DNA of 64,000 nucleotides from positions 271,560,001-271,624,000 of the forward strand of contig OZ024743.1 of assembly GCA_964016885.1 (NCBI GenBank), given 5' to 3'. Both the position numbers and the translations under genes were made by a program. Positions 1 to 64,000 of the stretch are shown here, piece by piece; position 1 is the first letter of the stretch, and each line of letters starts with the position of its first letter. Under the pieces are notes generated by a model. That model did not search any database, was not told the DNA's origin, and was given only the letters and a program-made list of their open reading frames with translations. This stretch comes from Eledone cirrhosa (lineage: Eukaryota).

Positions 1-3000
1 GAGTGGCAAGTATTAGTTCTGATATATAAAGGACTGTATTAACCCATGGATGAGTGTGAGTGTGGTAAGTATTAATTCTGATATATAAAGGACTGTATTA
101 ACCCATGGCTGAGTGTGAGAGTGGTAAGTATTAGTTCTGATATATAAAGGACTGTATTAACCCATGGCTGAGTGTGAGAGTGGTAAGTATTCGTTCTGAT
201 ATATAAAGGACTGTATTAACCCATGGCTGAGTGTGAGAGTGGTAAGTATTAGTCTTGATATATAAAGGACTGTATTAACCCATGGCTGGGTGTGAGAGCG
301 GTAAGTATTAGTCTTGATATATAAAGGACTGTATTAACCCATGGCTGAGTGTGAGAGTGGTAAGTATTAGTCTTGATATATAAAGGACTGTATTAACCCA
401 TGGCTGAGTGTGAAAGTGGTAATTATTAGTCTTGCTATATAAAGGACTGTATTAACCCATGGCTGAGTGTGAGAGTGGTATGTATTAGTTCTGATATATA
501 AAGGACTCTATTAACCCATGGCAGAGTGTGAGAGTGGTAAGTATTAGTTCTGATATATAAAGGACTGTATTAACCCATGGCTGGGTGTGAGAGTGGTAAG
601 TATTAATTCTGATATATAAAGGACTGTATTAACCCATGGTTGGCTGTGAGAGTGGTAAGTATTAGTTCTGATATATAAAGGACTGTATTAACCCATGGCT
701 GGGTGTGAGAGTGTTAACTATTAGTTCTGATATATAAAGGACTGTATTAACCCATGGCTGGGTGTGAGAGTGGTAAGTATTAGTTCTGATATATAAAGGA
801 CTGTATTAACCCATGGCTGAGTGTGAGAGTGGTAAGTATTAGTCTTGATATATAAAGGACTGTATTAACCAATGGCTTGGGTGTGAGAGTGGCAAGTATT
901 AGTTCTGATATATAAAGGACTGTATTAACCCATGGATGAGTGTGAGTGTGGTAAGTATTAATTCTGATATATAAAGGACTGTATTAACCAATGGCTGAGT
1001 GTGAGAGTGGTAAGTATTAGTTCTGATATATAAAGGACTGTATTAACCCATGGCTGAGTGTGTGAGTGGTAAGTATTAGTTCTGATATATAAAGGACTGT
1101 GTTAACCCATGGCTGAGTGTGAGAGTGGTAAGTATTAGTTCTGATATATAAAGGACTGTATTAACCCATGGCTGAGTGTGAGAGTGGTAAGTAATAGTCT
1201 TGATATATAAAGGACTGTATTAACCAATGGCTGGGTGTGAGAGTGGTAAGTATTAGTCTTGATATATAAAGGACTGTATTAACCAATGGCTGGGTGTGAG
1301 AGTGGTAAGTATTAGTCTTGATATATAAAGGACTGTATTAACCCAAGGCTGAGTGTGAGAGTGGTAAGTATTAGTTCTGATATATAAAGGACTGTATTAA
1401 CCCATGGATGAGTGTGAGAGTGGTAAGTATTAGTTCTGATACATAAAGGACTGTATTAACCCATGGCTGAGTGTGAGAGTGGTAAGTATTAGTCTTGATA
1501 TATAAAGGACTGTATTAACCCATGGCTGAGTGTGAGAGTGGTAAGTATTATTCTTGATATATAAAGGACTGTATTAACCCATGGCTGAGTGTGAGAGTGG
1601 TAAGTATTAGTCTTGATATATAAAGGACTGTATTAACCAATGGCTGGGTGTGAGAGTGGTAAGTATTAGTTCTGATATATAAAGGACTGTATTAACCCAT
1701 GGCTGGGTGTGAGAGTGGTAAGTATTAGTTCTGATATATAAAGGACTGTATTAACCCATGGCTGGGTCTGAGAGTGGTAAGTATTAGTCTTGATATATAA
1801 AGGACTGTATTAACCCATGGCTGAGTGTAAGAGTGGTAAGTATTAGTCTTGATATATAAAGGACTGTATTAACCCATGGCTGAGTGTGAGAGTGGTAAGC
1901 ATTAGTCTTGATATATAAAGGACTGTATTAACCCATGGCTGAGTGTTAAAGTGGTAAGTATTAGTCTTGATATATAAAGGACTGTATTAACCCATGGCTG
2001 AGTGTGAGAGTGGTAAGTATTAGTTCTGATATATAAAGGACTGTATTAACCCATGGCAGAGTGTGAGAGTGGTAAGTATTAGTTCTGATATATAAAGGAC
2101 TGTATTAACCCATGGCTGGGTGTGAGAGTGGTAAGTATTAATTCTGATATATAAAGGACTGTATTAACCCATGGTTGGCTGTGAGAGTGGTAAGTATTAG
2201 TTCTGATATATAAAGGACTGTATTAACCCATGGCTGGGTGTGAGAGTGTTAACTATTAGTTCTGATATATAAAGGACTGTATTAACCCATGGCTGGGTGT
2301 GAGAGTGGTAAGTATTAGTTCTGATATATAAAGGACTGTATTAACCCATGGCTGAGTGTGAGAGTGGTAAGTATTAGTCTTGATATATAAAGGACTGTAT
2401 TAACCAATGGCTTGGGTGTGAGAGTGGCAAGTATTAGTTCTGATATATAAAGGACTGTATTAACCCATGGATGAGTGTGAGTGTGGTAAGTATTAATTCT
2501 GATATATAAAGGACTGTATTAACCCATGGCTGAGTGTGAGAGTGGTAAGTATTAGTTCTGATATATAAAGGACTGTATTAACCCATGGCTGAGTGTGTGA
2601 GTGGTAAGTATTAGTTCTGATATATAAAGGACTGTGTTAACCCATGGCTGAGTGTGAGAGTGGTAAGTATTAGTTCTGATATATAAAGGACTGTATTAAC
2701 CCATGGCTGAGTGTGAGAGTGGTAAGTAATAGTCTTGATATATAAAGGACTGTATTAACCAATGGCTGGGTGTGAGAGTGGTAAGTATTAGTCTTGATAT
2801 ATAAAGGACTGTATTAACCAATGGCTGGGTGTGAGAGTGGTAAGTATTAGTCTTGATATATAAAGGACTGTATTAACCCAAGGCTGAGTGTGAGAGTGGT
2901 AAGTATTAGTTCTGATATATAAAGGACTGTATTAACCCATGGATGAGTGTGAGAGTGGTAAGTATTAGTTCTGATACATAAAGGACTGTATTAACCCATG

Positions 3001-6000
3001 GCTGAGTGTGAGAGTGGTAAGTATTAGTCTTGATATATAAAGGACTGTATTAACCCATGGCTGAGTGTGAGAGTGGTAAGTATTATTCTTGATATATAAA
3101 GGACTGTATTAACCCATGGCTGAGTGTGAGAGTGGTAAGTATTAGTCTTGATATATAAAGGACAGTATTAACCAATGGCTGGGTGTGAGAGTGGTAAGTA
3201 TTAGTTCTGATATATAAAGGACTGTATTAACCCATGGCTGGGTGTGAGAGTGGTAAGTATTAGTTCTGATATATAAAGGACTGTATTAACCCATGGCTGG
3301 GTCTGAGAGTGGTAAGTATTAGTCTTGATATATAAAGGACTGTATTAACCCATGGCTGAGTGTAAGAGTGGTAAGTATTAGTCTTGATATATAAAGGACT
3401 GTATTAACCCATGGCTGAGTGTGAGAGTGGTAAGCATTAGTCTTGATATATAAAGGACTGTATTAACCCATGGCTGAGTGTTAAAGTGGTAAGTATTAGT
3501 CTTGATATATAAAGGACTGTATTAACCCATGGCTGAGTGTGAGAGTGGTAAGTATTAGTTCTGATATATAAAGGACTGTATTAACCCATGGCTGGGTGTG
3601 AGAGTGGTAAGTATTAGTTCTGATATATAAAGGACTGTATTAACCCATGGCTGGGTGTGAGAGTGGTAAGTATTAGTCTTGATATATAAAGGACTGTATT
3701 AACCAATGGCTGGGTGTGAGAGTGGTAATTATTAGTCTTGATATATAAAGGACTGTATTAACCCATGGCTGAGTGTGAGAGTGGTAAGTATTAGTTCTGA
3801 TATATAAAGGACTGTATTAACCAATGGCTGGGTGTGAGAGTGGTAAGTATTAGTTCTGATATATAAAGGACTGTATTAACCCATGGATGGGTGTGAGAGT
3901 GGTAAGTATTAGTCTTGATATATAAAGGACTGTATTAACCCATGGCTGGGTGTGAGAGCGGTAAGTATTAGTCTTGATATATAAAGGACTGTATTAACCC
4001 ATGGCTGAGTGTGAGAGTGGTAAGTATTAGTCTTGATATATAAAGGACTGTATTAACCCATGGCTGAGTGTGAAAGTGGTAATTATTAGTCTTGCTATAT
4101 AAAGGACTGTATTAACCCATGGCTGAGTGTGAGAGTGGTATGTATTAGTTCTGATATATAAAGGACTCTATTAACCCATGGCAGAGTGTGAGAGTGGTAA
4201 GTATTAGTTCTGATATATAAAGGACTGTATTAACCCATGGCTGGGTGTGAGAGTGGTAAGTATTAGTTCTGATATATAAAGGACTGTATTAACCCATGGT
4301 TGGGTGTGAGAGTGGTAAGTATTAGTTCTGATATATAAAGGACTGTATTAACCCATGGCTGGGTGTGAGAGTGGTAAGTATTAGTTCTGATATATAAAGG
4401 ACTGTATTAACCCATGGATGGGTGTGAGAGTGGTAAGTATTAGTCTTGATATATAAAGGACTGTATTAACCCATGGCTGAGTGTGAGAGTGGTAAGTATT
4501 AGTCTTGATATATAAAGGACTGTATTAACCCATGGCTGAGTGTGAGAGTGGTAAGTATTAGTTCTGATATATAAAGAACTGTATTAACCCATGGCTGAGT
4601 GTGAGAGTCGTAAGTATTAGTCTTGATATATAAAGGACTGTATTAACCAATGGCTTAGGTGTGAGAGTGGTAAGTATTAGTTCTGATATATAAAGGACTG
4701 TATTAACCCATTGCTGAGTGTGAGTGTGGTAAGTATTAGTCTTGATATATAAAGGACTGTATTAACCCATGGTTGAGTGTGAGAGTGGTAAGTATTAATT
4801 CTGATATATAAAGGACTGTATTAACCCATGGCTGAGTGTGAGAGTGGTAAGTATTAGTTCTGATATATAAAGAACTGTATTAACCCATGGCTGAGTGTGA
4901 GAGTGGTAAGTATTAGTTCTGATATATAAAGGACTGTATTAACCCATGGCTGAGTGTGTGAGTGGTAAGTATTAGTTCTGATATATAAAGGACTGTGTTA
5001 ACCCATGGCTGAGTGTGAGCGTGGTAAGTATTAGTTCTGATAAATAAAGGACTGTATTAACCCATGGCTGAGTGTGAGAGTGGTAAGTATTAGTCTTGAT
5101 ATATAAAGGACTGTATTAACCCATGGCTGAGTGTGAGAGTGGTAAGTATTATTCTTGATATATAAAGGACTGTATTAACCCATGGCTGAGTGTGAGAGTG
5201 GTAAGTATTAGTCTTGATATATAAAGGACTGTATTAACCAATGGCTGGGTGTGAGAGTGGTAAGTATTAGTTCTGATATATAAAGGAGTGTAATATCCCA
5301 TGGCTGGGTGTGAGAGTGGTAAGTATTAGTTCTGATATATAAAGGACTGTATTAACCCATGGCTGGGTCTGAGAGTGGTAAGTATTAGTCTTGATATATA
5401 AAGGACTGTATTAACCCATGGCTGAGTGTGAGAGTGGTAAGTATTAGTCTTGATATATAAAGGACTGTATTAACCCATGGCTGAGTGTGAGAGTGGTAAG
5501 CATTAGTCTTGATATATAAAGGACTGTATTAACCCATGGCTGAGTGTTAAAGTGGTAAGTATTAGTCTTGATATATAAAGGACTGTATTAACCCATGGCT
5601 GAGTGTGAGAGTGGTAAGTATTAGTTCTGATATATAAAGGACTGTATTAACCCATGGCTGGGTGTGAGAGTGGTAAGTATTAGTCTTGATATATAAAGGA
5701 CTGTATTAACCAATGGCTGGGTGTGAGAGTGGTAAGTATTAGTCTTGATATATAAAGGACTGTATTAACCCATGGCTGAGTGTGAGAGTGGTAAGTATTA
5801 GTCTTGATATATAAAGGACTGTATCAACCCATGGCTGGGTGTGAGAGTGGTAAGTATTAGTCTTGATATATAAAGGACTGTATTAACCCATGGCTGAGTG
5901 TAGGAGTGGTAAGTATTATTCTTGATATATAAAGGATTGTATTAACCCATGGCTGGGTGTGAGAGTGGTAAGTATTAGTTCTGATATATAAAGGACTGTA

Positions 6001-9000
6001 TTAACCCATGGCTGTGTGTGAGAGTGATAAGTATTAGTCTTGATATATAAAGGACTGTATTAACCCATGGCTGAGTGTGAGAGTGGTAAGTATTAGTTCT
6101 AATATATAAAGGACTGTATTAACCCACGAGTGTGAGAGTGGTAAGTATTAGTTCTGATATATAAAGGACTGTATTAACTCATGGCTGAGTGTGAGAGTGG
6201 TAAGTATTAGTTCTGATATATAAAGGACTGTATTAACCCATGGCTGAGTGTGAGAGTGGTAAGTATTGGTTCTGATATATAAAGGACTGTATTAACCCAT
6301 GGCAGAGTGTGAGAGTGGTAAGTATTAGTCTTGATATATAAAGGAGTGTATTAACCAATGGCTGGGTGTGAGAGTGGTAAGTATTAGTCTTGATATATAA
6401 AGGACTGTATTAACCCATGGCTGAGTGTAGGAGTGGTAAGTATTATTCTTGATATATAAAGGATTGTATTAACCCATGGCTGGGTGTGAGAGTGGTAAGT
6501 ATTAGTCTTGATATATAAAGGACTGTATTAACCCATGGCTGAGTGTAGGAGTGGTAAGTATTATTCTTGATATATAAAGGACTGTATTAACCCATGGCCG
6601 GGTGTGAGAGTGGTAAGTATTAGTTCTGATATATAAAGGACTGTATTAACCCATGGCTGTGTGTGAGAGTGATAAGTGTTAGTCTTGATATATAAAGGAC
6701 TGTATTAACCCATGGCTGAGTGTGAGAGTGGTAAGTATTAGTTCTGATATATAAAGGACTGTATTAACCCACGAGTGTGAGAGTGGTAAGTATTAGTTCT
6801 GATATATAAAGGACTGTATTAACTCATGGCTGAGTGTGAGAGTGGTAAGTATTAGTTCTGATATATAAAGGACTGTATTAACCCATGGCTGAGTGTGAGA
6901 GTGGTAAGTATTGGTTCTGATATATAAAGGACTGTATTAACCCATGGCAGAGTGTGAGAGTGGTAAGTATTAGTTCTGATATATAAAGGACTGCATTAAC
7001 CCATGGCTGGGTGTGAGAGTGGTAAGTATTAGTCTTGATATATATAGGACTGTATTAACCCATGGCTGAGTGTGAGAGTGGTAAGTATTAGTATTGATAT
7101 ATAAAGGAGTGTATTAACCAATGGCTGAGTGTGAGAGTGGTAAGTATTAGTCTTGATATATAAAGGACTGTATTAACCCATGGCTGAGTGTGAGAGTGGT
7201 AAGTATTAGTCTTGATATATAAAGGACTGTATTAACCCATGGCTGAGTGTGAGAGTGGTAAGTATTAGTTCTGATATATAAAGGACTGTATTAACCAATG
7301 GCTGAGTGTGAGAGTGGTAAGTATTAGTCTTGATATATAAAGGACTGTATTAACCCATGGCTGTGTGTGAGAGCGGTAAGTATTAGTCTTGATATATAAA
7401 GGACTGTATTAACCCATGGCTGAGTGTGAGAGTGGTAAGTATTAGTCTTGATATATAAAGGACTGTATTAACCCATGGCTGAGTGTGAAAGTGGTTATTA
7501 TTAGTCTTGATATATAAAGGACTGTATTAACCCATGGCTGAGTGTGAGAGTGGTAAGTATTAGTTCTGATATATAAAGGACTGTATTAACCCATGGCTGA
7601 GTGTGAGAGAGGTAAGTATTAGTCTTGATATATAAAGGACTGTATTAACCCATGGCTGAGTGTGAGAGTGGTAAGCATTAGTCTTGATATATAAAGGACT
7701 GTATTAACCCATGGCTGAGTGTTAAAGTGGTAAGTATTAGTCTTGATATATAAAGGACTGTATTAACCCATGGCTGAGTGTGAGAGTGGTAAGTATTAGT
7801 TCTGATATATAAAGGACTGTATTAACCCATGGCTGAGTGTGAGAGTGGTAAGTATTAGTCTTGATATATAAAGGACAGTATTAACCAATGGCTGGGTGTG
7901 AGAGTGGTAAGTATTAGTTCTGATATATAAAGGACTGTATTAACCCATGGCTGGGTGTGAGAGTGGTAAGTATTAGTTCTGATATATAAAGGACTGTATT
8001 AACCCATGGCTGGGTCTGAGAGTGGTAAGTATTAGTCTTGATATATAAAGGACTGTATTAACCCATGGCTGAGTGTAAGAGTGGTAAGTATTAGTCTTGA
8101 TATATAAAGGACTGTATTAACCCATGGCTGAGTGTGAGAGTGGTAAGCATTAGTCTTGATATATAAAGGACTGTATTAACCCATGGCTGAGTGTTAAAGT
8201 GGTAAGTATTAGTCTTGATATATAAAGGACTGTATTAACCCATGGCTGAGTGTGAGAGTGGTAAGTATTAGTTCTGATATATAAAGGACTGTATTAACCC
8301 ATGGCTGGGTGTGAGAGTGGTAAGTATTAGTTCTGATATATAAAGGACTGTATTAACCCATGGCTGGGTGTGAGAGTGGTAAGTATTAGTCTTGATATAT
8401 AAAGGACTGTATTAACCAATGGCTGGGTGTGAGAGTGGTAATTATTAGTCTTGATATATAAAGGACTGTATTAACCCATGGCTGAGTGTGAGAGTGGTAA
8501 GTATTAGTTCTGATATATAAAGGACTGTATTAACCAATGGCTGGGTGTGAGAGTGGTAAGTATTAGTTCTGATATATAAAGGACTGTATTAACCCATGGA
8601 TGGGTGTGAGAGTGGTAAGTATTAGTCTTGATATATAAAGGACTGTATTAACCCATGGCTGGGTGTGAGAGCGGTAAGTATTAGTCTTGATATATAAAGG
8701 ACTGTATTAACCCATGGCTGAGTGTGAGAGTGGTAAGTATTAGTCTTGATATATAAAGGACTGTATTAACCCATGGCTGAGTGTGAAAGTGGTAATTATT
8801 AGTCTTGCTATATAAAGGACTGTATTAACCCATGGCTGAGTGTGAGAGTGGTATGTATTAGTTCTGATATATAAAGGACTCTATTAACCCATGGCAGAGT
8901 GTGAGAGTGGTAAGTATTAGTTCTGATATATAAAGGACTGTATTAACCCATGGCTGGGTGTGAGAGTGGTAAGTATTAGTTCTGATATATAAAGGACTGT

Positions 9001-12000
9001 ATTAACCCATGGTTGGGTGTGAGAGTGGTAAGTATTAGTTCTGATATATAAAGGACTGTATTAACCCATGGCTGGGTGTGAGAGTGGTAAGTATTAGTTC
9101 TGATATATAAAGGACTGTATTAACCCATGGATGGGTGTGAGAGTGGTAAGTATTAGTCTTGATATATAAAGGACTGTATTAACCCATGGCTGAGTGTGAG
9201 AGTGGTAAGTATTAGTCTTGATATATAAAGGACTGTATTAACCCATGGCTGAGTGTGAGAGTGGTAAGTATTAGTTCTGATATATAAAGAACTGTATTAA
9301 CCCATGGCTGAGTGTGAGAGTCGTAAGTATTAGTCTTGATATATAAAGGACTGTATTAACCAATGGCTTAGGTGTGAGAGTGGTAAGTATTAGTTCTGAT
9401 ATATAAAGGACTGTATTAACCCATTGCTGAGTGTGAGTGTGGTAAGTATTAGTCTTGATATATAAAGGACTGTATTAACCCATGGTTGAGTGTGAGAGTG
9501 GTAAGTATTAATTCTGATATATAAAGGACTGTATTAACCCATGGCTGAGTGTGAGAGTGGTAAGTATTAGTTCTGATATATAAAGAACTGTATTAACCCA
9601 TGGCTGAGTGTGAGAGTGGTAAGTATTAGTTCTGATATATAAAGGACTGTATTAACCCATGGCTGAGTGTGTGAGTGGTAAGTATTAGTTCTGATATATA
9701 AAGGACTGTGTTAACCCATGGCTGAGTGTGAGCGTGGTAAGTATTAGTTCTGATAAATAAAGGACTGTATTAACCCATGGCTGAGTGTGAGAGTGGTAAG
9801 TATTAGTCTTGATATATAAAGGACTGTATTAACCCATGGCTGAGTGTGAGAGTGGTAAGTATTATTCTTGATATATAAAGGACTGTATTAACCCATGGCT
9901 GAGTGTGAGAGTGGTAAGTATTAGTCTTGATATATAAAGGACTGTATTAACCAATGGCTGGGTGTGAGAGTGGTAAGTATTAGTTCTGATATATAAAGGA
10001 GTGTAATAACCCATGGCTGGGTGTGAGAGTGGTAAGTATTAGTTCTGATATATAAAGGACTGTATTAACCCATGGCTGGGTCTGAGAGTGGTAAGTATTA
10101 GTCTTGATATATAAAGGACTGTATTAACCCATGGCTGAGTGTGAGAGTGGTAAGTATTAGTCTTGATATATAAAGGACTGTATTAACCCATGGCTGAGTG
10201 TGAGAGTGGTAAGCATTAGTCTTGATATATAAAGGACTGTATTAACCCATGGCTGAGTGTTAAAGTGGTAAGTATTAGTCTTGATATATAAAGGACTGTA
10301 TTAACCCATGGCTGAGTGTGAGAGTGGTAAGTATTAGTTCTGATATATAAAGGACTGTATTAACCCATGGCTGGGTGTGAGAGTGGTAAGTATTAGTCTT
10401 GATATATAAAGGACTGTATTAACCAATGGCTGGGTGTGAGAGTGGTAAGTATTAGTCTTGATATATAAAGGACTGTATTAACCCATGGCTGAGTGTGAGA
10501 GTGGTAAGTATTAGTCTTGATATATAAAGGACTGTATCAACCCATGGCTGGGTGTGAGAGTGGTAAGTATTAGTCTTGATATATAAAGGACTGTATTAAC
10601 CCATGGCTGAGTGTAGGAGTGGTAAGTATTATTCTTGATATATAAAGGATTGTATTAACCCATGGCTGGGTGTGAGAGTGGTAAGTATTAGTTCTGATAT
10701 ATAAAGGACTGTATTAACCCATGGCTGTGTGTGAGAGTGATAAGTATTAGTCTTGATATATAAAGGACTGTATTAACCCATGGCTGAGTGTGAGAGTGGT
10801 AAGTATTAGTTCTAATATATAAAGGACTGTATTAACCCACGAGTGTGAGAGTGGTAAGTATTAGTTCTGATATATAAAGGACTGTATTAACTCATGGCTG
10901 AGTGTGAGAGTGGTAAGTATTAGTTCTGATATATAAAGGACTGTATTAACCCATGGCTGAGTGTGAGAGTGGTAAGTATTGGTTCTGATATATAAAGGAC
11001 TGTATTAACCCATGGCAGAGTGTGAGAGTGGTAAGTATTAGTCTTGATATATAAAGGAGTGTATTAACCAATGGCTGGGTGTGAGAGTGGTAAGTATTAG
11101 TCTTGATATATAAAGGACTGTATTAACCCATGGCTGAGTGTAGGAGTGGTAAGTATTATTCTTGATATATAAAGGATTGTATTAACCCATGGCTGGGTGT
11201 GAGAGTGGTAAGTATTAGTCTTGATATATAAAGGACTGTATTAACCCATGGCTGAGTGTAGGAGTGGTAAGTATTATTCTTGATATATAAAGGACTGTAT
11301 TAACCCATGGCCGGGTGTGAGAGTGGTAAGTATTAGTTCTGATATATAAAGGACTGTATTAACCCATGGCTGTGTGTGAGAGTGATAAGTGTTAGTCTTG
11401 ATATATAAAGGACTGTATTAACCCATGGCTGAGTGTGAGAGTGGTAAGTATTAGTTCTGATATATAAAGGACTGTATTAACCCACGAGTGTGAGAGTGGT
11501 AAGTATTAGTTCTGATATATAAAGGACTGTATTAACTCATGGCTGAGTGTGAGAGTGGTAAGTATTAGTTCTGATATATAAAGGACTGTATTAACCCATG
11601 GCTGAGTGTGAGAGTGGTAAGTATTGGTTCTGATATATAAAGGACTGTATTAACCCATGGCAGAGTGTGAGAGTGGTAAGTATTAGTTCTGATATATAAA
11701 GGACTGCATTAACCCATGGCTGGGTGTGAGAGTGGTAAGTATTAGTCTTGATATATATAGGACTGTATTAACCCATGGCTGAGTGTGAGAGTGGTAAGTA
11801 TTAGTATTGATATATAAAGGAGTGTATTAACCAATGGCTGAGTGTGAGAGTGGTAAGTATTAGTCTTGATATATAAAGGACTGTATTAACCCATGGCTGA
11901 GTGTGAGAGTGGTAAGTATTAGTCTTGATATATAAAGGACTGTATTAACCCATGGCTGAGTGTGAGAGTGGTAAGTATTAGTTCTGATATATAAAGGACT

Positions 12001-43900: not shown

Positions 43901-43929
43901 CTTAGAACTTTGTGTATTTGAGCCTCATA

Positions 43930-44868: not shown

Positions 44869-44908
44869 ACGCAGAAATTGTCAAATAACCAATGTGAGTT
44901 TCGAACGG

Positions 44909-44920
44909 TCCTCGTTGCCA
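44909..44920 (-). promoter_or_regulatory. Primer binding site, probably tRNA-Ser(GCU)
   Basis: Minus strand TGGCAACGAGGA 2 nt after the 5' LTR; one mismatch from TGGCGACGAGGA, the complement of the metazoan tRNA-Ser(GCU) 3' end. Confidence 0.75.
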
Positions 44921-44922
44921 GA

Positions 44923-45885: not shown

Positions 45886-46637
45886 CTGAAATTGCACAAA
45901 TAACACACAAAAATGTAAGAAAGATAGATAAGTAAAACTATTCCTTACTTTGCTACAAGCAAGGTCAGCACCTGGTTATTTAGTGCACTAGGCTAGACCA
46001 ACAAATGTGTGCCCCATTCACCAAAATAAAATAACTTCAATATACAGTTTGGTAAGCTGAAAAATCTAGTTTTTGACACTTCTTGCTCTGATCACACTAA
46101 GAAAATTATTAAGCCTGCATTTTCTACTACACAGTCCACACCCACCCAGGCCAAATAATTGTTACAGGTTATAACATCATACAGCTCTATCCACCACTTT
46201 CGATATTTCCACAATGTTGCAATGTGTAATGTATTGCTCTAAGACATGAGCTCTAGGTGGCTGCTTAGTTGGTCTAATGGTAGCACTGGACCTGAACACA
46301 AGGCTTTATATTTATAGGAAAAATGAAACAAGAGTTTGTGAGCTTCATGCCTCGGCAAACATCATCACTGTTGTAAATGAAGTAAGGTATTTTACTTCCA
46401 GTCAGAACTTTCCAGACAAAAACAAGCTGACCAGCAGAAGTAAAATACAATATATCGGGAAATTAACATTAGTTCATAAACTACTATACACAGTCAAAGT
46501 GGAACATCTACATGGTCACTCAACCTGCTTAAAAAAACTGCTGAATCACCTCAAAACATAATCTATCATCTTAAAAAAAGAAGTAACGAATACATGGCAT
46601 AATAAAGTCCAAGATACAAAATATCTGAAATAAAAGC

Positions 46638-49600: not shown

Positions 49601-52600
49601 CAACACCAGTAACAGCAATAACAACAGTAATGACAACAACAGTAACAGCAATAACAACAGTAATTACAACAACAACAGTAATTACAACAACAACAGTAAC
49701 AGCAATAACAACAGCAATGACAACAACAACAGTAACAGCAATAACAACAGTAATGACAAAAACAACAGTAACAGCAATAACAACAGTAATGACAACAACA
49801 GTAACAGCAATAACAACAGTAATGACAACAACAACAATAACGGCAATAACAACAGTAATGACAACAACAGTAACAGCAACAACAACAGTAATGACAACAA
49901 CAGTAACAGCAATAATAACAGTAATGACAACAACAGTAACAGCAATAACAACAGTAATGACAACAACAGTAACAGCGATAACAACAGTAATGACAACAAC
50001 AGTAACAGCAATAACAACAGTAATGACAACAACAACAGTAACAGTAATGACAACACCAGTAACAACAATAACAACAGTAATGACAACAACAAGAGTAACA
50101 TCAATAACAACAGTAATGTCAACAACAACAGTAACAGCAATAACAACAGTAATGACAACAACAACAGTAACATCAATAAGAACAGTAATGACAACAACAG
50201 TAACAGCAATAATAATAGTAATGACAAGAACAACAGTAACAGCAATAACAACAGTAATGACAACAACAACAGTAACAGCAATAACAACAGTAATGACAAC
50301 AACAGTAACAGCAATAAAAACAGTAATGACAACAACAATAGTAACAGAAATAATAACAACAGTAATGACAACACCAGTAACAGCAATAACAACAGTAATG
50401 ACAACAACAGTAACAGCAATAACAACAGTAATTACAACAACAACAGTAATTACAACAACAACAGTAACAGCAATAACAACAGCAATGACAACAACAACAG
50501 TAACAGCAATAACAACAGTAATGACAACAACAGTAACAGCAATAACAACAGTAATGACAACAACAACAGTAATGACAACAACAGTAACAGCAATAACAAC
50601 AGTAATGACAACAACAGTAACAGCAATAACAACATTAATGACAACAACAAAAACAACAACAGTAACAGCAATAACAACAGTAATGACAACAACAGTAACA
50701 GCAATAACAACAGTAATGACAACACCAACAGTAACAGAAATAATAACGACAGTAATTACAACAACAACAGTAACAGCAATAACAACAGTAATGACAACAA
50801 CAGTAACAGCAATAAAAACAGTAATGACAACAACAATAGTAACAGAAATAATAACAACAGTAATGACAACACCAGTAACAGCAATAACAACAGTAATGAC
50901 AACAACAGTAACAGCAATAATAACAGTAATGACAACAACAACAGTAACAGCAATAACAACAGCAATGACAACAACAGTAACAGCAATAACAACAGTAATG
51001 ACAACAACAACAATAACGGCAATAACAACAGTAATGACAACAACAGTAACAGCAATAACAACAGTAATGACAACAACAGTAACAGCAATAATAACAGTAA
51101 TGACAACAACAGTAACAGCAATAACAACAGTAATGACAACAACAGTAACAGCAATAACAACAGTAATGACAACAACAACAGTAACAGCAATAACAACAGT
51201 AATGACAACAACAGTAACAGCAATAAAAACAGTAATGACAACAACAATAGTAACAGAAATAATAACAACAGTAATGACAACACCAGTAACAGCAATAACA
51301 ACAGTAATGACAACAACAGTAACAGCAATAACAACAGTAATTACAACAACAACAGTAATTACAACAACAACAGTAACAGCAATAACAACAGCAATGACAA
51401 CAACAACAGTAACAGCAATAACAACAGTAATGACAACAACAACAGTAACAGCAATAACAACAGTAATGACAACAACAGTAACAGCAATAACAACAGTAAT
51501 GACAACAACAACAATAACGGCAATAACAACAGTAATTACAACAACAACAGTAACAGAAATAATAACAACAGTAATTACAACAACAACAGTAACAGCAATA
51601 ACAACAGTAATGACAACAACAGTAACAGCAATAACAACAGTAATGACAACACCAACAGTAACAGAAATAATAACAACAGTAATTACAACAACAACAGTAA
51701 CAGCAATAACAACAGTAATGACAACACCAGTAACAGCAATAACAACAGTAATGACAACAACAGTAACAGCAACAACAACAGTAATTACAACAACAACAGT
51801 AACAGCAATAACAACAGCAATGACAACAACAACAGTAACAGCAATAACAACAGTAATGACAACAACAACAGTAACAGCAATAACAACAGTAATGACAACA
51901 ACAGTAACAGCAATAACAACAGTAATGACAACAACAACAATAACGGCAATAACAACAATAATGACAACAACAGTAACAGCAATAACAACAGTAATGACAA
52001 CAACAGTAACAGCAATAATAACAGTAATGACAACAACAGTAACAGCAATAACAACAGTAATGACAACAACAGTAACAGCAATAACAACAGTAATGACAAC
52101 AACAACAGTAACAGTGATGACAACACCAGTAACAGCAATAACAACAGTAATGACAACAACAACAGTAACAGCAATAACAACAGTAATGACATCAACAGTA
52201 ACAGTAATGACAACAACAATAGTAACAGAAATAATAACAACAGCAATGACAACAACAACAGTAACAGCAATAACAACAGTAACAGCAATAACAACAGTAA
52301 TGACAACAACAACAGTAACAGCAATAATAACAGTAATGACAACAACAGTAACAGCAATAATAACAGTAATGACAACAACAATAGTAACAGCAATAACAAC
52401 AGTAATGACAACAACAACAGTAACAGCAATAACAACAGTAATGACAACAACAGTAACAGCAATAACAACAGTAATGACAACAACAACAGTAACAGCAATA
52501 ATAACAGTAATGACAACAACAGTAACAGCAATAATAACAGTAATGACAACAACAATAGTAACAGAAATAATAACAGTAATGACAACAACAATAGTAACAG

Positions 52601-55600
52601 CAATAACAACAGTAATGACAACAACAACAGTAACAGCAATAACAACAGTAACAGCAATAACAACAGTAATGTCAACAACAACAACAGTAACAGCAATAAC
52701 AACAGTAACAGCAATAACAACAGTAATGACAACAACAACAGTAACAGCAATAACAACAGTAACAGCAATAACAACAGTAATGACAACAACAACAGTAACA
52801 GCAATAACAACAGTAATGACAACAACAGTAACAGCAATAACAACAGTAATGACAACAACAACAGTAACAGCAATAATAACAGTAATGACAACAACAGTAA
52901 CAGCAATAATAACAGTAATGACAACAACAATAGTAACAGAAATAATAACAGCAATAACAACAGTAATGACAACAACAACAGTAACAGCAATAACAACAGT
53001 AATGACATCAACAGTAACAGTAATGACAACAACAATAGTAACAGAAATAATAACAACAGCAATGACAACAACAACAGTAACAGCAATAATAACAGTAACA
53101 GCAATAACAACAGTAATGACAACAACAACAGTAACAGCAATAATAACAGTAATGACAACAACAATAGTAACAGCAATAACAACAGTAATGACAACAACAA
53201 CAGTAACAGCAATAACAACAGTAATGACAACAACAGTAACAGCAATAACAACAGTAATGACAACAACAACAGTAACAGCAATAATAACAGTAATGACAAC
53301 AACAGTAACAGCAATAATAACAGTAATGACAACAACAATAGTAACAGAAATAATAACAGTAATGACAACAACAATAGTAACAGCAATAACAACAGTAATG
53401 ACAACAAGAACAGTAACAGCAATAACAACAGTAACAGCAATAACAACAGTAATGACAACAACAACAGTAACAGCAATAACAACAGTAACAGCAATAACAA
53501 CAGTAATGACAACAACAACAACAGTAACAGCAATAACAACAGTAACAGCAATAACAACAGTAATGACAACAACAACAGTAACAGCAATAACAACAGTAAT
53601 GACAACAACAATAGTAACAGCAATAACAACAGTAATGACAACAACAACAGTAACAGCAATAACAACAGTAATGACAACAACAGTAACAGCAATAACAACA
53701 GTAATGACAGCAACAACAGTAACAGCAATAATAACAGTAATGACAACAACAGTAACAGCAATAATAACAGTAATGACAACAACAATAGTAACAGAAATAA
53801 TAACAGTAATGACAACAACAATAGTAACAGCAATAACAACAGTAATGACAACAACAACAGTAACATCAATAACAACAGTAACAGCAATAACAACAGTAAT
53901 GACAACAACAACAACAGTAACAGCAATAACAACAGTAACAGCAATAACAACAGTAATGACAACAACAACAGTAACAGCAATAACAACAGTAATGACAACA
54001 ACAACAGTAACAGCAATAACAACAGTAATGACAACAACAGTAACAGCAATAACAACAGTAATGACAACAACAACAATAACGGCAATAACAACAGTAATGA
54101 CAACAACAGTAACAGCAATAACAACAGTAATGACAACAACAGTAACAGCAATAATAACAGTAATGACAACAACAGTAACAGCAATAACAACAGTAATGAC
54201 AACAACAGTAACAGCAATAACAACAGTAATGACAACAACAGTAACAGCAATAACAACAGTAATGACAACAACAACAGTAACAGTAATGACAAGACCAGTA
54301 ACAGCAATAACAACAGTAATGACAACAACAACAGTAACAGCAATAATAACAGTAATGACAACAACAGCAACAGCAATAATAACAGTAATGACAACAACAA
54401 TAGTAACAGAAATAATAACAGCAATAACAACAGTAATGACAACAACAACAGTAACAGCAATAATAACAGTAATGACAACAACAACAGTAACAGCAATAAT
54501 AACAGTAATGACAACAACAACAGTAACATCAATAACAACAGTAACAGCAATAACAACAGTAATGACAACAACAACAGTAACAGCAATAACAACAGTAACA
54601 GCAATAACAACAGTAATGACAACAACAACAGTAACATCAATAACAACAGTAACAGCAATAACAACAGTAATGACAACAACAACAGTAACAGCAATAACAA
54701 CAGTAACAGCAATAACAACAGTAATGACAACAACAACAGTAACAGCAATAACAACAGTAATGACAACAACAGTAACAGCAATAACAACAGTAATGACAAC
54801 AACATTAACAGCAATAACAACAGTAATGACAACAACAGTAACAGCAATAACAACAGTAATGACAACAACAGTAACAGCAATAACAACAGTAATGACAACA
54901 ACAACAGTAACAGCAATAATAACAGTAATGACAACAACAGTAACAGCAATAACAACAGTAATGACAACAACAACAGTAACAGCAATAACAACAGTAATGA
55001 CATCAACAGTAACAGTAATGACAACAACAATAGTAACAGAAATAATAACAACAGCAATGACAACAACAACAGTAACAGCAATAACAACAGTAACAGCAAT
55101 AACAACAGTAATGACAACAACAACAACAGTAACAGCAATAACAACAGTAACAGCAATAACAACAGTAATGACAACAACAACAACAGTAACAGCAATAACA
55201 ACAGTAACAGCAATAACAACAGTAATGACAACAACAACAGTAACAGCAATAATAACAGTAATGACAACAACAGTAACAGCAATAACAACAGTAATGACAA
55301 CAACAACAATAACTGCAATAACAACAGTAATGACAACAACAGTAACAGCAATAACAACAGTAATGACAATAACAGTAACAGCAATAATAACAGTAATGAC
55401 AACAACAGTAACAGCAATAACAACAGTAATGACAACAACAGTAACAGCAATAACAACAGTAATGACAACAACAGTAACAGCAATAACAACAGTAATGACA
55501 ACAACAATAGTAACAGTAATGACAACACCAGTAACAGCAATAACAACAGTAATGACAACAACAACAGTAACAGCAATAATAACAGTAATGACAACAACAG

Positions 55601-57480
55601 TAACAGCAATAATAACAGTAATGACAACAACAATAGTAACAGAAATAATAACAGCAATAACAACAGTAATGACAACAACAACAGTAACAGCAATAACAAC
55701 AGTAATGACATCAACAGTAACAGTAATGACAACAACAATAGTAACAGAAATAATAACAACAGCAATGACAACAACAACAGTAACAGCAATAACAACAGTA
55801 ATGACAACAACAACAGTAACAGCAATAATAACAGTAATGACAACAACAGTAACAGCAATAATAACAGTAATGACAACAACAATAGTAACAGCAATAACAA
55901 CAGTAATGACAACAACAACAGTAACAGCAATAACAACAGTAATGACAACAACAGTAACAGCAATAACAACAGTAATGACAACAACAACAGTAACAGCAAT
56001 AATAACAGTAATGACAACAACAGTAACAGCAATAATAACTGTAATGACAACAACAATAGTAACAGAAATAATAACAGTAATGACAACAACAATAGTAACA
56101 GCAATAACAACAGTAATGACAACAACAACAGTAACAGCAATAACAACAGTAACAGCAATAACAACAGTAATGACAACAACAACAACAGTAACAGCAATAA
56201 CAACAGTAACAGCAATAACAACAGTAATGACAACAACAACAGTAACAGCAATAACAACAGTAACAGCAATAACAACAGTAATGACAACAACAACAGTAAC
56301 AGCAATAACAACAGTAATGACAACAACAGTAACAGCAATAACAACAGTAATGACAACAACAACAGTAACAGCAATAATAACAGTAATGACAACAACAGTA
56401 ACAGCAATAATAACAGTAATGACAACAACAATAGTAACAGAAATAATAACAGCAATAACAACAGTAATGACAACAACAACAGTAACAGCAATAACAACAG
56501 TAATGACAACAACAAAAGTAACAGCAATAACAACAGTAATGACAACAACAACAGTAACAGCAATAATAACAGTAATGACAACAACAACAGTAACAGCAAT
56601 AATAACAGTAATGACAACAACAGTAACAGCAATAACAACAGTAATGACAACAACAACAGTAACAGCAATAACAACAGTAATGACATCAACAGTAACAGTA
56701 ATGACAACAACAATAGTAACAGAAATAATAACAACAGCAATGACAACAACAACAGTAACAGCAATAACAACAGTAACAGCAATAACAACAGTAATGACAA
56801 CAACAGTAACAGCAATAACAACAGTAATGACAACAACAGTAACAGCAATAACAACAGTAATGACAACAACAACAGTAACAGCAATAATAACAGTAATGAC
56901 AACAACAGTAACAGCAATAATAACAGTAATGACAACAACAATAGTAACAGAAATAATAACAGTAATGACAACAACAATAGTAACAGCAATAACAACAGTA
57001 ATGACAACAAGAACAGTAACAGCAATAACAACAGTAACAGCAATAACAACAGTAATGACAACAACAACAGTAACAGCAATAACAACAGTAACAGCAATAA
57101 CAAAAGTAATGACAACAACAACAACAGTAACAGCAATAACAACAGTAACAGCAATAACAACAGTAATGACAACAACAACAGTAACAGCAATAACAACAGT
57201 AATGACAACAACAATAGTAACAGCAATAACAACAGTAATGACAACAACAACAGTAACAGCAATAACAACAGTAATGACAACAACAGTAACAGCAATAACA
57301 ACAGTAATGACAACAACAACAATAACGGCAATAACAACTGTAATGACAACAACAGTAACAGCAATAACAACAGTAATGACAACAACAGTAACAGCAATAA
57401 TAATAGTAATGACAAGAACAACAGTAACAGCAATAACAACAGTAATGACAACAACAGTAACAGCAATAACAACAGTAATG

Positions 57481-57513
<33 letters not shown>

Positions 57514-60500
57514 GTAACAGCAATAACAACAGTAATGACAACAACAGTAACAGCAATAACAACAGTAATGACAACACCAACAGTAACAGAAATAATAACA
57601 ACAGTAATTACAACAACAACAGTAACAGCAATAACAACAGTAATGACAACAACAGTAACAGCAATAACAACAGTAATGACAACACCAACAGTAACAGAAA
57701 TAATAACAACAGTAATTACAACAACAACAGTAACAGCAATAACAACAGTAATGACAACACCAGTAACAGCAATAACAACAGTAATGACAACAACAGTAAC
57801 AGCAACAACAACAGTAATTACAACAACAACAGTAACAGCAATAACAACAGCAATGACAACAACAACAGTAACAGCAATAACAACAGTAATGACAACAACA
57901 ACAGTAACAGCAATAACAACAGTAATGGCAACAACAGTAACAGCAATAACAACAGTAATGACAACAACAACAATAACGGCAATAACAACAATAATGACAA
58001 CAACAGTAACAGCAATAACAACAGTAATGACAACAACAGTAACAGCAATAATAACAGTAATGACAACAACAGTAACAGCAATAACAACAGTAATGACAAC
58101 AACAGTAACAGCAATAACAACAGTAATGACAACAACAACAGTAACAGTAATGTCAACAACAACAGTAACAGCAATAATAACAGTAATGACAACAACAGTA
58201 ACAGCAATAATAACAGTAATGACAACAACAATAGTAACATAAATAATAACAGCAATAACAACAGTAATGACAACAACAACAGTAACAGCAATAACAACAG
58301 TAATGACAACAACAACAGTAACAGCAATAATAACAGTAATGACAACAACAACAGTAACAGCAATAATAACAGTAATGACAACAACAGTAACAGCAATAAC
58401 AACAGTAATGACAACAACAACAGTAACAGCAATAACAACAGTAATGACATCAACAGTAACAGTAATGACAACAACAATAGTAACAGAAATAATAACAACA
58501 GCAATGACAACAACAACAGTAACAGCAATAACAACAGTAACAGCAATAACAACAGTAATGACAACAACAACAGTAACAGCAATAATAACAGTAATGACAA
58601 CAACAGTAACAGCAATAATAACAGTAATGACAACAACAATAGTAACAGCAATAACAACAGTAATGACAACAACAACAGTAACAGCAATAACAACAGTAAT
58701 GACAACAACAGTAACAGCAATAACAACAGTAATGACAACAACAACAGTAACAGCAATAATAACAGTAATGACAACAACAGTAACAGCAATAATAACAGTA
58801 ATGACAACAACAATAGTAACAGAAATAATAACAGTAATGACAACAACAATAGTAACAGCAATAACAACAGTAATGACAACAACAACAGTAACAGCAATAA
58901 CAACAGTAACAGCAATAACAACAGTAATGACAACAACAACAACAGTAACAGCAATAACAACAGTAACAGCAATAACAACAGTAATGACAAGAACAACAGT
59001 AACAGCAATAACAACAGTAACAGCAATAACAACAGTAATGACAACAACAACAGTAACAGCAATAACAACAGTAATGACAACAACAGTAACAGCAATAACA
59101 ACAGTAATGACAACAACAACAGTAACAGCAATAATAACAGTAATGACAACAACAGTAACAGCAATAATAACAGTAATGACAACAACAATAGTAACAGAAA
59201 TAATAACAGCAATAACAACAGTAATGACAACAACAACAGTAACAGCAATAACAACAGTAATGACAACAACAAAAGTAACAGCAATAACAACAATAATGAC
59301 AACAACAACAGTAACAGCAATAATAACAGTAATGACAACAACAACAGTAACAGCAATAATAACAGTAATGACAACAACAGTAACAGCAATAACAACAGTA
59401 ATGACAACAACAACAGTAACAGCAATAACAACAGTAATGACATCAAAAGTAACAGCAATAACAACAGTAATGACAACAACAGTAACAGCAATAATAACAG
59501 TAATGACAACAACAGTAACAGCAATAATAACAGTAATGACAACAACAGTAACAGCAATAACAACAGTAATGACAACAACAATAGTAACAGAAATAATAAC
59601 AGCAATAACAACAGTAATGACAACAACAGTAACAGCAATAATAACAGTAATGACAACAACAGTAACAGCAATAACAACAGTAATGACAACAACAGTAACA
59701 GCAATAACAACAGTAATGACAACAACAGTAACAGCAATAACAACAGTAATGACAACAACAATAGTAACAGTAATGACAACACCAGTAACATCAATAACAA
59801 CAGTAATGACAACAACAACAGTAACAGCAATAACAACAGTAATGACAACAACAACAGTAACAGCAATAATAACAGTAATGACAACAACAATAGTAACAGA
59901 AATAATAACAACAGCAATGACAACAACAACAGTAACAGCAATAACAACAGTAACAGCAATAACAACAGTAATGACAACAACAACAGTAACAGCAATAATA
60001 ACAGTAATGACAACAACAATAGTAACAGCAATAACAACAGTAATGACAACAACAACAGTAACAGCAATAACAACAGTAATGACAACAACAGTAACAGCAA
60101 TAACAACAGTAATGACAACAACAACAGTAACAGCAATAATAACAGTAATGACAACAACAGTAACAGCAATAATAACAGTAATGACAACAACAATAGTAAC
60201 AGAAATAATAACAGTAATGACAACAACAATAGTAACAGCAATAACAACAGTAATGACAACAAGAACAGTAACAGCAATAACAACAGTAACAGCAATAACA
60301 ACAGTAATGACAACAACAACAGTAACAGCAATAACAACAGTAACAGCAATAACAACAGTAATGACAACAACAACAACAGTAACAGCAATAACAACAGTAA
60401 CAGCAATAACAACAGTAATGACAACAACAACAGTAACAGCAATAACAACAGTAATGACAACAACAATAGTAACAGCAATAACAACAGTAATGACAACAAC

Positions 60501-63219
60501 AACAGTAACAGCAATAACAACAGTAATGACAACAACAGTAACAGCAATAACAACAGTAATGACAGCCACAACAGTAACAGCAATAATAACAGTAATGACA
60601 ACAACAGTAACAGCAATAATAACAGTAATGACAACAACAATAGTAACAGAAATAATAACAGTAATGACAACAACAATAGCAACAGCAATAACAACAGTAA
60701 TGACAACAACAACAGTAACATCAATAACAACGGTAACAGCAATAACAACAGTAATGACAACAACAACAACAGTAACAGCAATAACAACAGTAACAGCAAT
60801 AACAACAGTAATGACAACAACAACAGTAACAGCAATAACAACAGTAATGACAACAACAACAGTAACAGCAATAACAACAGTAATGACAACAACAGTAACA
60901 GCAATAACAACAGTAATGACAACAACAACAATAACAGCAATAACAACAGTAATGACAACAACAGTAACAGCAATAACAACAGTAATGACAACAACAGTAA
61001 CAGCAATAATAACAGTAATGACAACAACAGTAACAGCAATAATAACAGTAATGACAACAACAGTAACAGCAATAACAACAGTAATGACAACAACAATAGT
61101 AACAGAAATAATAACAGCAATAACAACAGTAATGACAACAACAGTAACAGCAATAATAACAGTAATGACAACAACAGTAACAGCAATAACAACAGTAATG
61201 ACAACAACAGTAACAGCAATAACAACAGTAATGACAACAACAGTAACAGCAATAACAACAGTAATGACAACAACAATAGTAACAGTAATGACAACACCAG
61301 TAACATCAATAACAACAGTAATGACAACAACAACAGTAACAGCAATAACAACAGTAATGACAACAACAACAGTAACAGCAATAATAACAGTAATGACAAC
61401 AACAACAGTAACAGCAATAATAACAGTAATGACAACAACAGTAACAGCAATAACAACAGTAATGACAACAACAACAGTAACAGCAATAACAACAGTAATG
61501 TCATCAACAGTAACAGTAATGACAACAACAATAGTAACAGAAATAATAACAACAGCAATGACAACAACAACAGTAACAGCAATAACAACAGTAATGACAA
61601 CAACAACAGTAACAGCAATAATAACAGTAATGACAACAACAGTAACAGCAATAATAACAGTAATGACAACAACAATAGTAACAGCAATAACAACAGTAAT
61701 GACAACAACAACAGTAACAGCAATAACAACAGTAATGACAACAACAGTAACAGCAATAACAACAGTAATGACAACAACAACAGTAACAGCAATAATAACA
61801 GTAATGACAACAACAGTAACAGCAATAATAACTGTAATGACAACAACAATAGTAACAGAAATAATAACAGTAATGACAACAACAATAGTAACAGCAATAA
61901 CAACAGTAATGACAACAACAACAGTAACAGCAATAACAACAGTAACAGCAATAACAACAGTAATGACAACAACAACAACAGTAACAGCAATAACAACAGT
62001 AACAGCAATAACAACAGTAATGACAACAACAACAGTAACAGCAATAACAACAGTAACAGCAATAACAACAGTAATGACAACAACAACAGTAACAGCAATA
62101 ACAACAGTAATGACAACAACAGTAACAGCAATAACAACAGTAATGACAACAACAACAGTAACAGCAATAATAACAGTAATGACAACAACAGTAACAGCAA
62201 TAATAACAGTAATGACAACAACAATAGTAACAGAAATAATAACAGCAATAACAACAGTAATGACAACAACAACAGTAACAGCAATAACAACAGTAATGAC
62301 AACAACAAAAGTAACAGCAATAACAACAGTAATGACAACAACAACAGTAACAGCAATAATAACAGTAATGACAACAACAACAGTAACAGCAATAATAACA
62401 GTAATGACAACAACAGTAACAGCAATAACAACAGTAATGACAACAACAACAGTAACAGCAATAACAACAGTAATGACATCAACAGTAACAGTAATGACAA
62501 CAACAATAGTAACAGAAATAATAACAACAGCAATGACAACAACAACAGTAACAGCAATAACAACAGTAACAGCAATAACAACAGTAATGACAACAACAGT
62601 AACAGCAATAACAACAGTAATGACAACAACAACAGTAACAGCAATAATAACAGTAATGACAACAACAGTAACAGCAATAATAACAGTAATGACAACAACA
62701 ATAGTAACAGAAATAATAACAGTAATGACAACAACAATAGTAACAGCAATAACAACAGTAATGACAACAAGAACAGTAACAGCAATAACAACAGTAACAG
62801 CAATAACAACAGTAATGACAACAACAACAGTAACAGCAATAACAACAGTAACAGCAATAACAAAAGTAATGACAACAACAACAACAGTAACAGCAATAAC
62901 AACAGTAACAGCAATAACAACAGTAATGACAACAACAACAGTAACAGCAATAACAACAGTAATGACAACAACAATAGTAACAGCAATAACAACAGTAATG
63001 ACAACAACAACAGTAACAGCAATAACAACAGTAATGACAACAACAGTAACAGCAATAACAACAGTAATGACAACAACAACAATAACGGCAATAACAACAG
63101 CAATAACAACAGTAATGACAACAACAGTAACAGCAATAATAATAGTAATGACAAGAACAACAGTAACAGCAATAACAACAGTAATGACAACAACAGTAAC
63201 AGCAATAACAACAGTAATG

Positions 63220-63252
<33 letters not shown>

Positions 63253-64000
63253 GTAACAGCAATAACAACAGTAATGACAACAACAGTAACAGCAATAACA
63301 ACAGTAATGACAACACCAACAGTAACAGAAATAATAACAACAGTAATTACAACAACAACAGTAACAGCAATAACAACAGTAATGACAACAACAGTAACAG
63401 CAATAACAACAGTAATGACAACACCAACAGTTACAGAAATAATAACAACAGTAATTACAACAACAACAGTAACAGCAATAACAACAGTAATGACAACACC
63501 AGTAACAGCAATAACAACAGTAATGACAACAACAGTAACAGCAACAACAACAGTAATTACAACAACAACAGTAACAGCAATAACAACAGCAATGACAACA
63601 ACAACAGTAACAGCAATAACAACAGTAATGACAACAACAACAGTAACAGCAATAACAACAGTAATGGCAACAACAGTAACAGCAATAACAACAGTAATGA
63701 CAACAACAACAATAACGGCAATAACAACAATAATGACAACAACAGTAACAGCAATAACAACAGTAATGACAACAACAGTAACAGCAATAATAACAGTAAT
63801 GACAACAACAGTAACAGCAATAACAACAGTAATGACAACAACAGTAACAGCAATAACAACAGTAATGACAACAACAACAGTAACAGCAATAATAACAGTA
63901 ATGACAACAACAGTAACAGCAATAATAACAGTAATGACAACAACAATAGTAACAGCAATAACAACAGTAATGACAACAACAACAGTAACAGCAATAACAA
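46638..64000. repeat. Compound triplet minisatellite, 33/36-bp unit GTA ACA GCA ATA ACA ACA GTA ATG (ACA)3-4; >17 kb, continues past right edge
   Basis: Built almost only from ACA/GTA/ATA/GCA/ATG triplets; unit length varies in steps of 3; left edge (46638-46800) more degenerate. Confidence 0.98.

Follow-up and report, generated by a model that had tools for sequence, protein, structure and literature searches.

The window analysed here, a stretch of 64,000 nucleotides from the octopod Eledone cirrhosa (G000:C4:271,560,001-271,624,000 in a 3.0-Gb assembly), is part of a polycystin-1-type gene on the minus strand, which spans at least 339 kb and has six of its exons in the window. Two introns of this gene are almost completely filled by tandem repeats, and the two arrays together account for 56% of the gene span. 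The feature is real and represents a variant of known intron gigantism, which probably arose by neutral growth of locus-private satellites that is tolerated inside an intact gene of the polycystin-1 family. Much of the interest of the finding lies in the genome-wide landscape of long arrays and in the polycystin-death-domain architecture of the encoded protein, rather than in the analogy to the Y-loop genes of Drosophila.

Gene model and position of the two giant introns

Positions are given as window values, to which 271,560,000 has to be added to obtain the genome position; negative values and values above 64,000 are window coordinates extended past its ends. The locus is situated at 271.6 of the 378.8 Mb of C4, and no N is present in the window or in the 464 kb around it (200 kb added per side). 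The sequence-only reading had described six stop-free, phase-matched exons at 32257-45885 on the minus strand, and these are confirmed by their AG/GT ends and by matches to orthologues. A tblastn search with the Octopus bimaculoides protein P0001 gave five clean blocks with 62-83% identity and a sixth block that extended into the intron (42% there); the spliced exon aligns cleanly. P0001 is also the best relative of the largest window exon (73% identical), which has one perfect copy in the genome.

The same reading had placed the missing exons beyond the two arrays. This is where tblastn with P0001 located the remaining exons, which are collinear and in phase on both far sides, so that the triplet-derived array indeed lies in an intron splitting the PLAT domain and the 59-bp satellite in an intron splitting the TOP domain. 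With exons found both upstream and downstream, a truncated gene was rejected. Between the six exons and the arrays, where the earlier reading had seen no further exons, none was found for four orthologues (P0006, P0003, P0060 and P0051; E<=0.05 over 30810-32256 and 45886-46637).

The resulting model comprises 25 exons from 124,934 to -158,083, with GT-AG boundaries in 24 of 24 introns and a single frame of 1,755 codons, which contains no frameshift and has its only stop at the end. Its splice sites were picked to fit the orthologue, and the model as a whole is built on DNA sequence. At 1,201 of 1,769 columns (68%) the predicted protein is identical to P0001. Upstream blocks matching orthologue N-termini lie unchained outside the 25-exon frame (Table 1) and the first exon was not located, which makes 339 kb a minimum. 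One of the upstream candidates, a mucin-like stretch of 495 codons, is itself a 78-bp tandem repeat, and the orthologues carry unrelated Thr-rich repeats at this position. Contigs from three runs, aligned to the inner exon region, contained no exon-exon joint; this alignment was swamped by dispersed repeats and is uninformative either way.

The PLAT-splitting intron extends from 119,270 to 45,886 (73,385 nt, phase 0) and consists of array sequence to 95.1%, while the TOP-splitting intron runs from 32,256 to -88,885 (121,142 nt, phase 1) and reaches 98.7%. The remaining 22 introns measure 0.2-18.5 kb, and the median over all 24 is 2,070 nt, close to the median intron of O. vulgaris of 2,467 bp (PMC10700109; this and the further papers are cited from excerpts). 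Both arrays end short of the splice sites, with gaps of 73 nt (59-bp array) and 743 nt (triplet array) to the acceptors and of 1.4 and 2.8 kb, respectively, to the donors.

Composition of the arrays

The units of both arrays are confined to a single locus. The 737 exact and 1,949 three-mismatch matches that a 29-mer from the 59-bp unit has across the assembly are located without exception within its own array, and 431 of 431 assembly matches of a 36-mer from the triplet array lie inside that array. No source copy of the 59-bp unit was found in the rest of the 464 kb beyond chance matches of 12-15 nt. A shared centromeric-type satellite was rejected for both arrays on account of these single-locus units, with at most 8% of 15-mers shared between any pair among 13 arrays.

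The 59-bp array contains 259 distinct units with patchy higher-order lags. Nested near-exact duplications of 1.7-30 kb occur in the arrays. In the 59-bp array, one of them is a tandem duplicate of 30,050 bp (G000:C4:271,479,370-271,539,469), which shows two differences and includes an exact match of 19,231 bp; the triplet array has exact repeats of up to 6,056 bp. In combination with the single-locus units and a mean unit divergence of 3.9%, these duplications suggest that slippage and unequal exchange would have enlarged each array at its present site, starting from a short repeat in the intron.

The triplet array is composed of AAC, AAT, AGC, AGT and GAC with periods of 12, 36 and 69, and its register is kept over about 66 kb (window 46770 to G000:C4:271,676,471). 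Stop-free frames of 23,234 codons (Asn/Ser/Asp) on the plus strand and 22,208 codons (Val/Ile/Thr/Ala) on the minus strand run through it; a comparable array sampled elsewhere (L052) is open for at most 1,000 codons. A coding function was rejected, since the codons are two substitutions away from any stop and the array is freshly homogenised. The open frames are probably a by-product of the codons and a trap for gene predictors.

On the plus strand, the 59-bp unit combines a TATA-like run with an ATG and with GGTAAGTAT, which reads as a perfect donor (1,782 copies) and for which a source exon was not found. The complement of GGTAAGTAT, located on the transcribed strand, presumably equals the 5' end of U1 small nuclear RNA, a likeness noted post hoc which is possibly a chance match.

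Long arrays across the genome and introns of paralogues

The abundance of long arrays was assessed in 60 spaced 10-kb pieces on C1-C6 (1,854 of 2,996 Mb). In 11 of these, corresponding to 18% of bases (95% interval 9.5-30%), a single array of at least 9 kb covers at least 92% of the piece; with the five samples taken 1 Mb from contig starts left aside, 9 of 55 are array-filled. The sampled units are all different, with periods of 7-156 bp, and share at most 8% of 15-mers among each other or with the window arrays. Nine fully covered arrays were probed at -50, -20, +30 and +60 kb, where a retained unit does not prove continuity. The unit was retained at all four probes in three arrays (at least 111 kb), at three probes in two (at least 81 kb), at two in one, at one in two and at none in one. 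With similar or larger arrays being common in the samples, the window arrays are mid-sized for this genome.

For two of the probed units the copies add up to about 0.9-2.5 Mb each. One starts at C4:208.3 Mb, is present in about 46,200 copies (about 2.5 Mb) and may be centromeric; the other, with about 16,500 copies, occupies at least three blocks on C5.

The paralogues are compact. The distance from TM2-5 (transmembrane helices 2-5) to TOP is 3.5-19 kb in the paralogues, as compared with 126 kb in this gene, and the paralogue at C4:184 Mb has a PLAT intron at about the same site, which measures only about 0.65 kb. This paralogue carries a canonical GPS and an 11-kb array of a 43-bp unit just past the last detected channel exon. 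The polycystin loci on C3 are intron-poor, with open frames of 1,106-1,516 aa.

Splice and polyadenylation signals within the arrays

The two strands of the arrays differ in their content of processing signals. In the 59-bp array, strong donors are absent from the transcribed strand (0 per kb) and occur at 15.3 per kb on the opposite strand. The triplet array contains 0.2 AG per kb on the transcribed strand, against 84.9 on the opposite strand, and AATAAA is found there at 0.29 per kb on the opposite strand only. On the transcribed strand of the 59-bp array AATAAA amounts to 0.23 per kb (about 28 sites), as compared with 0.96 per kb in the ordinary introns of the gene. AGGT is nearly absent from the transcribed strand of the arrays, with 0.04 and 0 per kb as opposed to 4.2 per kb in the other introns, and recursive splicing within the arrays was rejected on this basis. 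The strand pattern is compatible with a removal of each intron in one step by exon definition. A general rule of splice-silent orientation was not supported over the ten intronic arrays of the gene. At an assumed rate of 1-4 kb/min, transcription of the gene would take 1.4-5.7 h.

Probable tolerated growth and alternative explanations

In the proposed scenario the arrays would be neutral, being transcribed and then spliced out as part of an ordinary intron. Tolerance is suggested by the intact reading frame and by arrays that stop short of acceptors and donors, and the ordinariness of such arrays for this genome by the observation that about a sixth of the sampled bases lie in arrays of at least 9 kb.

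Several points weigh against this explanation. Transcription of the gene and splicing of both introns are predictions from the DNA sequence, and the splice-site matrix was derived from this one gene (24 donors, 25 acceptors). In two of the ten intronic arrays (the 33-bp array and one 50-bp array) strong acceptors are more frequent on the transcribed than on the opposite strand. The triplet array itself has 0.16 strong acceptors per kb on the transcribed strand and none on the other, and in most sampled arrays both strands are nearly free of signals. Since intron sizes were taken from this genome and the paralogues, lineage-specific growth is a proposal. Two arrays of at least 70 kb within one gene are uncommon by rough arithmetic, and local facilitation may have contributed. 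Finally, the 30,050-bp duplicate may be either a very recent duplication or an artefact of assembly over-unrolling, in which case the 59-bp array may measure 89.6 rather than 119.6 kb; an inflation by up to 30 kb is a serious possibility, though not the favoured one.

Alternatively, the arrays could have crippled the gene recently through silencing, early termination or mis-splicing, with the open frame yet to decay. The near-exact duplications make the arrays look young, and the AATAAA sites on the transcribed strand of the 59-bp array would be candidates for early termination. However, these sites are less dense than in the ordinary introns of the same gene, GT-AG is kept in every intron, the long frame is free of stops and frameshifts, and in a nine-row tree the end branch of the window protein is not long (0.14, as compared with a median of 0.24). 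A crippled gene is therefore unlikely.

Even less probable is that the giant introns are functional in the manner proposed for Drosophila kl-3 and kl-5, with transcription through the satellites acting as a timer or assembling an RNA structure in the nucleus of a specialised cell, for example a spermatocyte or a sensory neuron. The anatomy would fit, with two introns that are 95-99% satellite, arrays covering more than half of the span and an intact frame, and the timer idea has been raised for the fly genes (PMC6508613). However, the introns fall short of the megabase introns of the fly genes by a factor of about ten (PMC6508621), and the few hours estimated for transcription contrast with about 3.5 days in the fly genes (PMC11207136). 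Moreover, arrays of similar or larger size are common genome-wide, and the paralogues encode the same stretch without comparable introns. An assembly artefact, with arrays that are not giant or not intronic at all due to over-unrolling or a mis-join, is highly improbable: reads shorter than the near-exact repeats described above cannot fix their copy number, but the 464 kb are free of N, flanking exons are collinear and in phase on both sides, units without another locus leave no source for a mis-join, 259 distinct unit variants are present, and 89.6 kb would be left even after removal of the duplicate.

Comparison with satellite-filled introns of other animals

Giant introns filled with satellites have been described mainly for Y genes of Drosophila, where they may be either useful or merely tolerated. 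For these genes, megabase introns and a satellite content of more than 99% of the locus have been described (PMC6508621), as well as transcription over about 90 h in spermatocytes, which needs Blanks and Heph (PMC6508621, PMC11207136, PMC6508613). The likeness to fly Y genes drawn by the sequence-only reading holds in one respect: as in kl-3, kl-5 and ks-1, intact coding exons are split by introns that are almost wholly tandem repeats. It does not extend to scale, since the octopod introns measure 73 and 121 kb rather than megabases and the arrays make up 56% rather than more than 99% of the span. Moreover, the Y-loop genes are Y-linked and expressed in spermatocytes, whereas the octopod locus is characterized by private units in a genome with long arrays throughout.

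The same anatomy at a tenth of the fly scale, in a conserved single-copy gene, with locus-private repeats and an array-rich genome, favours tolerance. The question of use versus tolerance thereby becomes testable by comparing individuals and related octopods.

Among molluscs, satellites of the Pacific oyster are dispersed along chromosome arms in short arrays at many shared sites and are often linked to transposable elements (PMC10048060). The octopod arrays are likewise scattered along chromosome arms, but the two in this gene measure 70-120 kb, and neither unit occurs at a second locus. Literature searches, which covered mostly listings and the beginnings of abstracts, returned no satellite-filled introns in cephalopods.

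In practice, gene models can be broken up by arrays of this kind. A possible example is O. vulgaris, in which the annotation divides the orthologue among three records (P0004, P0022 and P0023); the main record skips two exons after the first PLAT exon, at the site that corresponds to the giant intron of the present gene.

The polycystin module and its ectodomain

Pfam, run on orthologues and on two window exons, identified PLAT, Polycystin_dom and PKD_channel in P0001, P0006 and P0003; the window model is collinear with P0001 at the identity given above. The order of elements is that of polycystin-1, with TM1, PLAT, TM2-5, the TOP/polycystin domain and channel-like helices. Hydropathy displays 10 peaks above threshold, as compared with 11 expected, and the best match among solved structures is human polycystin-1 (PDB 6a70_B, E=1.8e-38). 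The protein is predicted as an 11-helix PKD1-type subunit, with an ectodomain that is short, PAN-like and Thr-rich and a GPS-like site that would stay uncleaved.

The canonical GPS motif is a site of autoproteolysis. No Pfam GPS match was obtained in P0001, P0003, P0006 or P0051, while the Owenia protein P0013 has one. At the corresponding position the window model reads LDSNLFGTF, where a paralogue has CLCNHLTSF, and due to this replacement of CNHLTSF by SNLFGTF self-cleavage is predicted to be unlikely. In addition, REJ (PF02010) has no match in the full-length orthologues P0006, P0003 and P0051. With no REJ domain and a degenerate GPS site, the lead towards PKDREJ-type sperm receptors finds no support here. 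The nine-row tree, which has long branches, groups the window protein with Octopus and Argonauta proteins (100/100) and unites octopods and abalones (100/99) apart from PKDREJ.

Thus, the protein shares the unit of TM1, PLAT, TM2-5, TOP and six channel-like helices with the polycystin-1 family (PKD1, PKD1L1-3, PKDREJ and nematode LOV-1), but differs from it in the missing Pfam REJ and GPS matches, in the short ectodomain and in a tail that measures about 540 aa and carries two death domains. Assembly with a PKD2-type subunit into a cation channel is a further trait of the family.

The death-domain tail

The cytosolic tail follows the last helix, is encoded by in-phase exons of the same gene and carries the two death domains at its end. 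In P0001 the first domain is matched by Pfam Death with E=4.7e-10. The combination of a polycystin with death domains is also found in predicted records of O. bimaculoides (XP_014770430), O. sinensis (XP_036364125), Argonauta (GAB1601804, first death domain only) and abalones (XP_071110902 and XP_046351489), and a fragment record of such a protein exists for cuttlefish. Among 20 other matches and orthologues scanned, both modules are joined only in P0006 and P0051, and no death-domain tail was found within about 90 kb downstream of the C4:184-Mb paralogue.

The death-domain pair aligns with DTHD1-like proteins (for example Mytilus P0005) over 180 columns with an HHalign probability of 99.3%. 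An AlphaFold model of the O. bimaculoides tail has mostly predicted local distance difference test (pLDDT) values of 60-89 over residues 350-535 and of 51 overall. Its first domain superimposes on the FADD death domain with Z 13.0 and a root-mean-square deviation of 2.8 over 98 aligned residues, and its second domain on a CARD with Z 6.9; a Foldseek search with the tail model gave no match at E<=0.001. A six-helix death fold is thus present as judged from sequence, and it is the sequence match that carries the weight, since middling Z values are common for helical bundles. ZU5/UPA domains in front of the death domains are a weak lead (Atlas 0.76-0.78, HHalign probability 15%, beta-rich model with a mean pLDDT below 60), and Pfam ZU5 has no match in the orthologues. 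DTHD1-like and ZU5-UPA-death-domain proteins of the ankyrin, UNC5 and PIDD type are, unlike the octopod protein, soluble or receptors of other types.

The two cytosolic death domains are predicted to recruit death-domain partners, which suggests, from sequence, a signalling output not known for polycystins in a protein that occurs from octopods to abalone. A survey of cephalopod TRP channels mentions TRPP/PKD1L sequences, and the word 'death' is absent from the excerpt (PMC13402157). The literature searches described above, with the same partial coverage, likewise returned no polycystin with death domains. A bolder combined claim would be that hundreds of working genes in this genome contain private satellites that have grown in place to 50-150 kb, and that the host gene encodes a mollusc-wide receptor of the polycystin-1 type, so far undescribed, in which tandem death domains couple polycystin sensing to death-domain signalling. 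If this were true, the genome would be a natural system in which to measure what intron gigantism costs and where its limits lie, away from the Y chromosome of the fly. Taken as a whole, the claim is tentative and on balance doubtful.

Further features of the locus

Table 1. Coordinates of the gene, its arrays and related loci (window values unless a contig is named; TRF, Tandem Repeats Finder; ORF, open reading frame; LTR, long terminal repeat)
Feature	Position	Strand	Basis or remark
Exon preceding the 45885 exon, across the array	G000:C4:271,679,441-271,679,271	-	gene model
Exon, 155 nt, middle of PLAT, acceptor of the 73,385-nt phase-0 intron	45731..45885	-	tblastn and gene model
Exon, 646 nt, end of PLAT and TM2-TM5 region	37562..38207	-	gene model, tblastn
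Exon, 115 nt, end of TM5 and loop	36349..36463	-	gene model, tblastn
Exon, 239 nt, linker and S1-equivalent transmembrane helix	34031..34269	-	gene model, tblastn
Exon, 175 nt, TOP/polycystin domain start	33385..33559	-	gene model; weak Pfam Polycystin_dom match E=0.0024
Exon, 84 nt, TOP domain, ends ...DYLP-G, phase-1 donor of the 121-kb intron	32257..32340	-	gene model, tblastn
Exon following the 32257 exon, across the array	G000:C4:271,471,114-271,470,524	-	gene model
Tail exons, 12 of the same gene	G000:C4:271,441,991-271,401,917	-	gene model
Non-array 3' part of the PLAT-splitting intron, 743 nt	45886..46628	-	
Non-array 5' part of the TOP-splitting intron, 1,447 nt, without PKD exon	30810..32256	-	
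PAN-like exon-like block matching orthologue N-termini	181,276-181,070	-	
Exon-like block matching orthologue N-termini	171,722-171,596	-	
Thr/Pro-rich mucin-like exon candidate, 495 codons	150,171-148,685 = G000:C4:271,710,171-271,708,685	-	
Exon-like blocks matching orthologue N-termini	near 134,600 and 127,100	-	
59-bp satellite array, window part	1..30809		TRF: 522.8 copies in window, 93% match
59-bp satellite array, whole	G000:C4:271,471,188-271,590,809		119,622 bp, about 2,030 copies
Triplet-derived array, window part	46629..64000		TRF
Triplet-derived array, whole	G000:C4:271,606,629-271,676,453		69,825 bp
Broken Ty3/Gypsy-like LTR retrotransposon, 7.5-kb intron between PLAT exons	40705..45182	-	ORF fragments, repeat alignment
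Array-filled samples	L043, L047, L050, L052, L059, L060, L062, L072, L075, L081, L091		
Other polycystin-family loci	C3:169.20-169.22 Mb, C3:46.07 Mb, C10:24.5 Mb, C14:11.5 Mb, C15:22.06 Mb, C4:183.96-184.02 Mb		

No RNA family reached the Rfam gathering score in window 28000-50000. The LTR retrotransposon listed in Table 1 has terminal repeats that are identical at 237 of 274 aligned columns (86%), and its protease, reverse transcriptase and integrase motifs are what we take to place it with the Ty3/Gypsy-like elements. Beyond the left end of the window, the 18.5-kb intron of the gene harbors further arrays (G000:C4:271,443,772-271,459,318), namely two 50-bp arrays of 2.9 and 4.8 kb in inverted orientation to each other and an array of 12.4 copies of a 465-bp unit with 99% match.

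Four scaffolds of the assembly measure 379-443 Mb and are followed by much smaller ones (135 and 103 Mb). Octopus has roughly 30 chromosomes, and the scaffold sizes suggest chromosome fusions relative to this genus.

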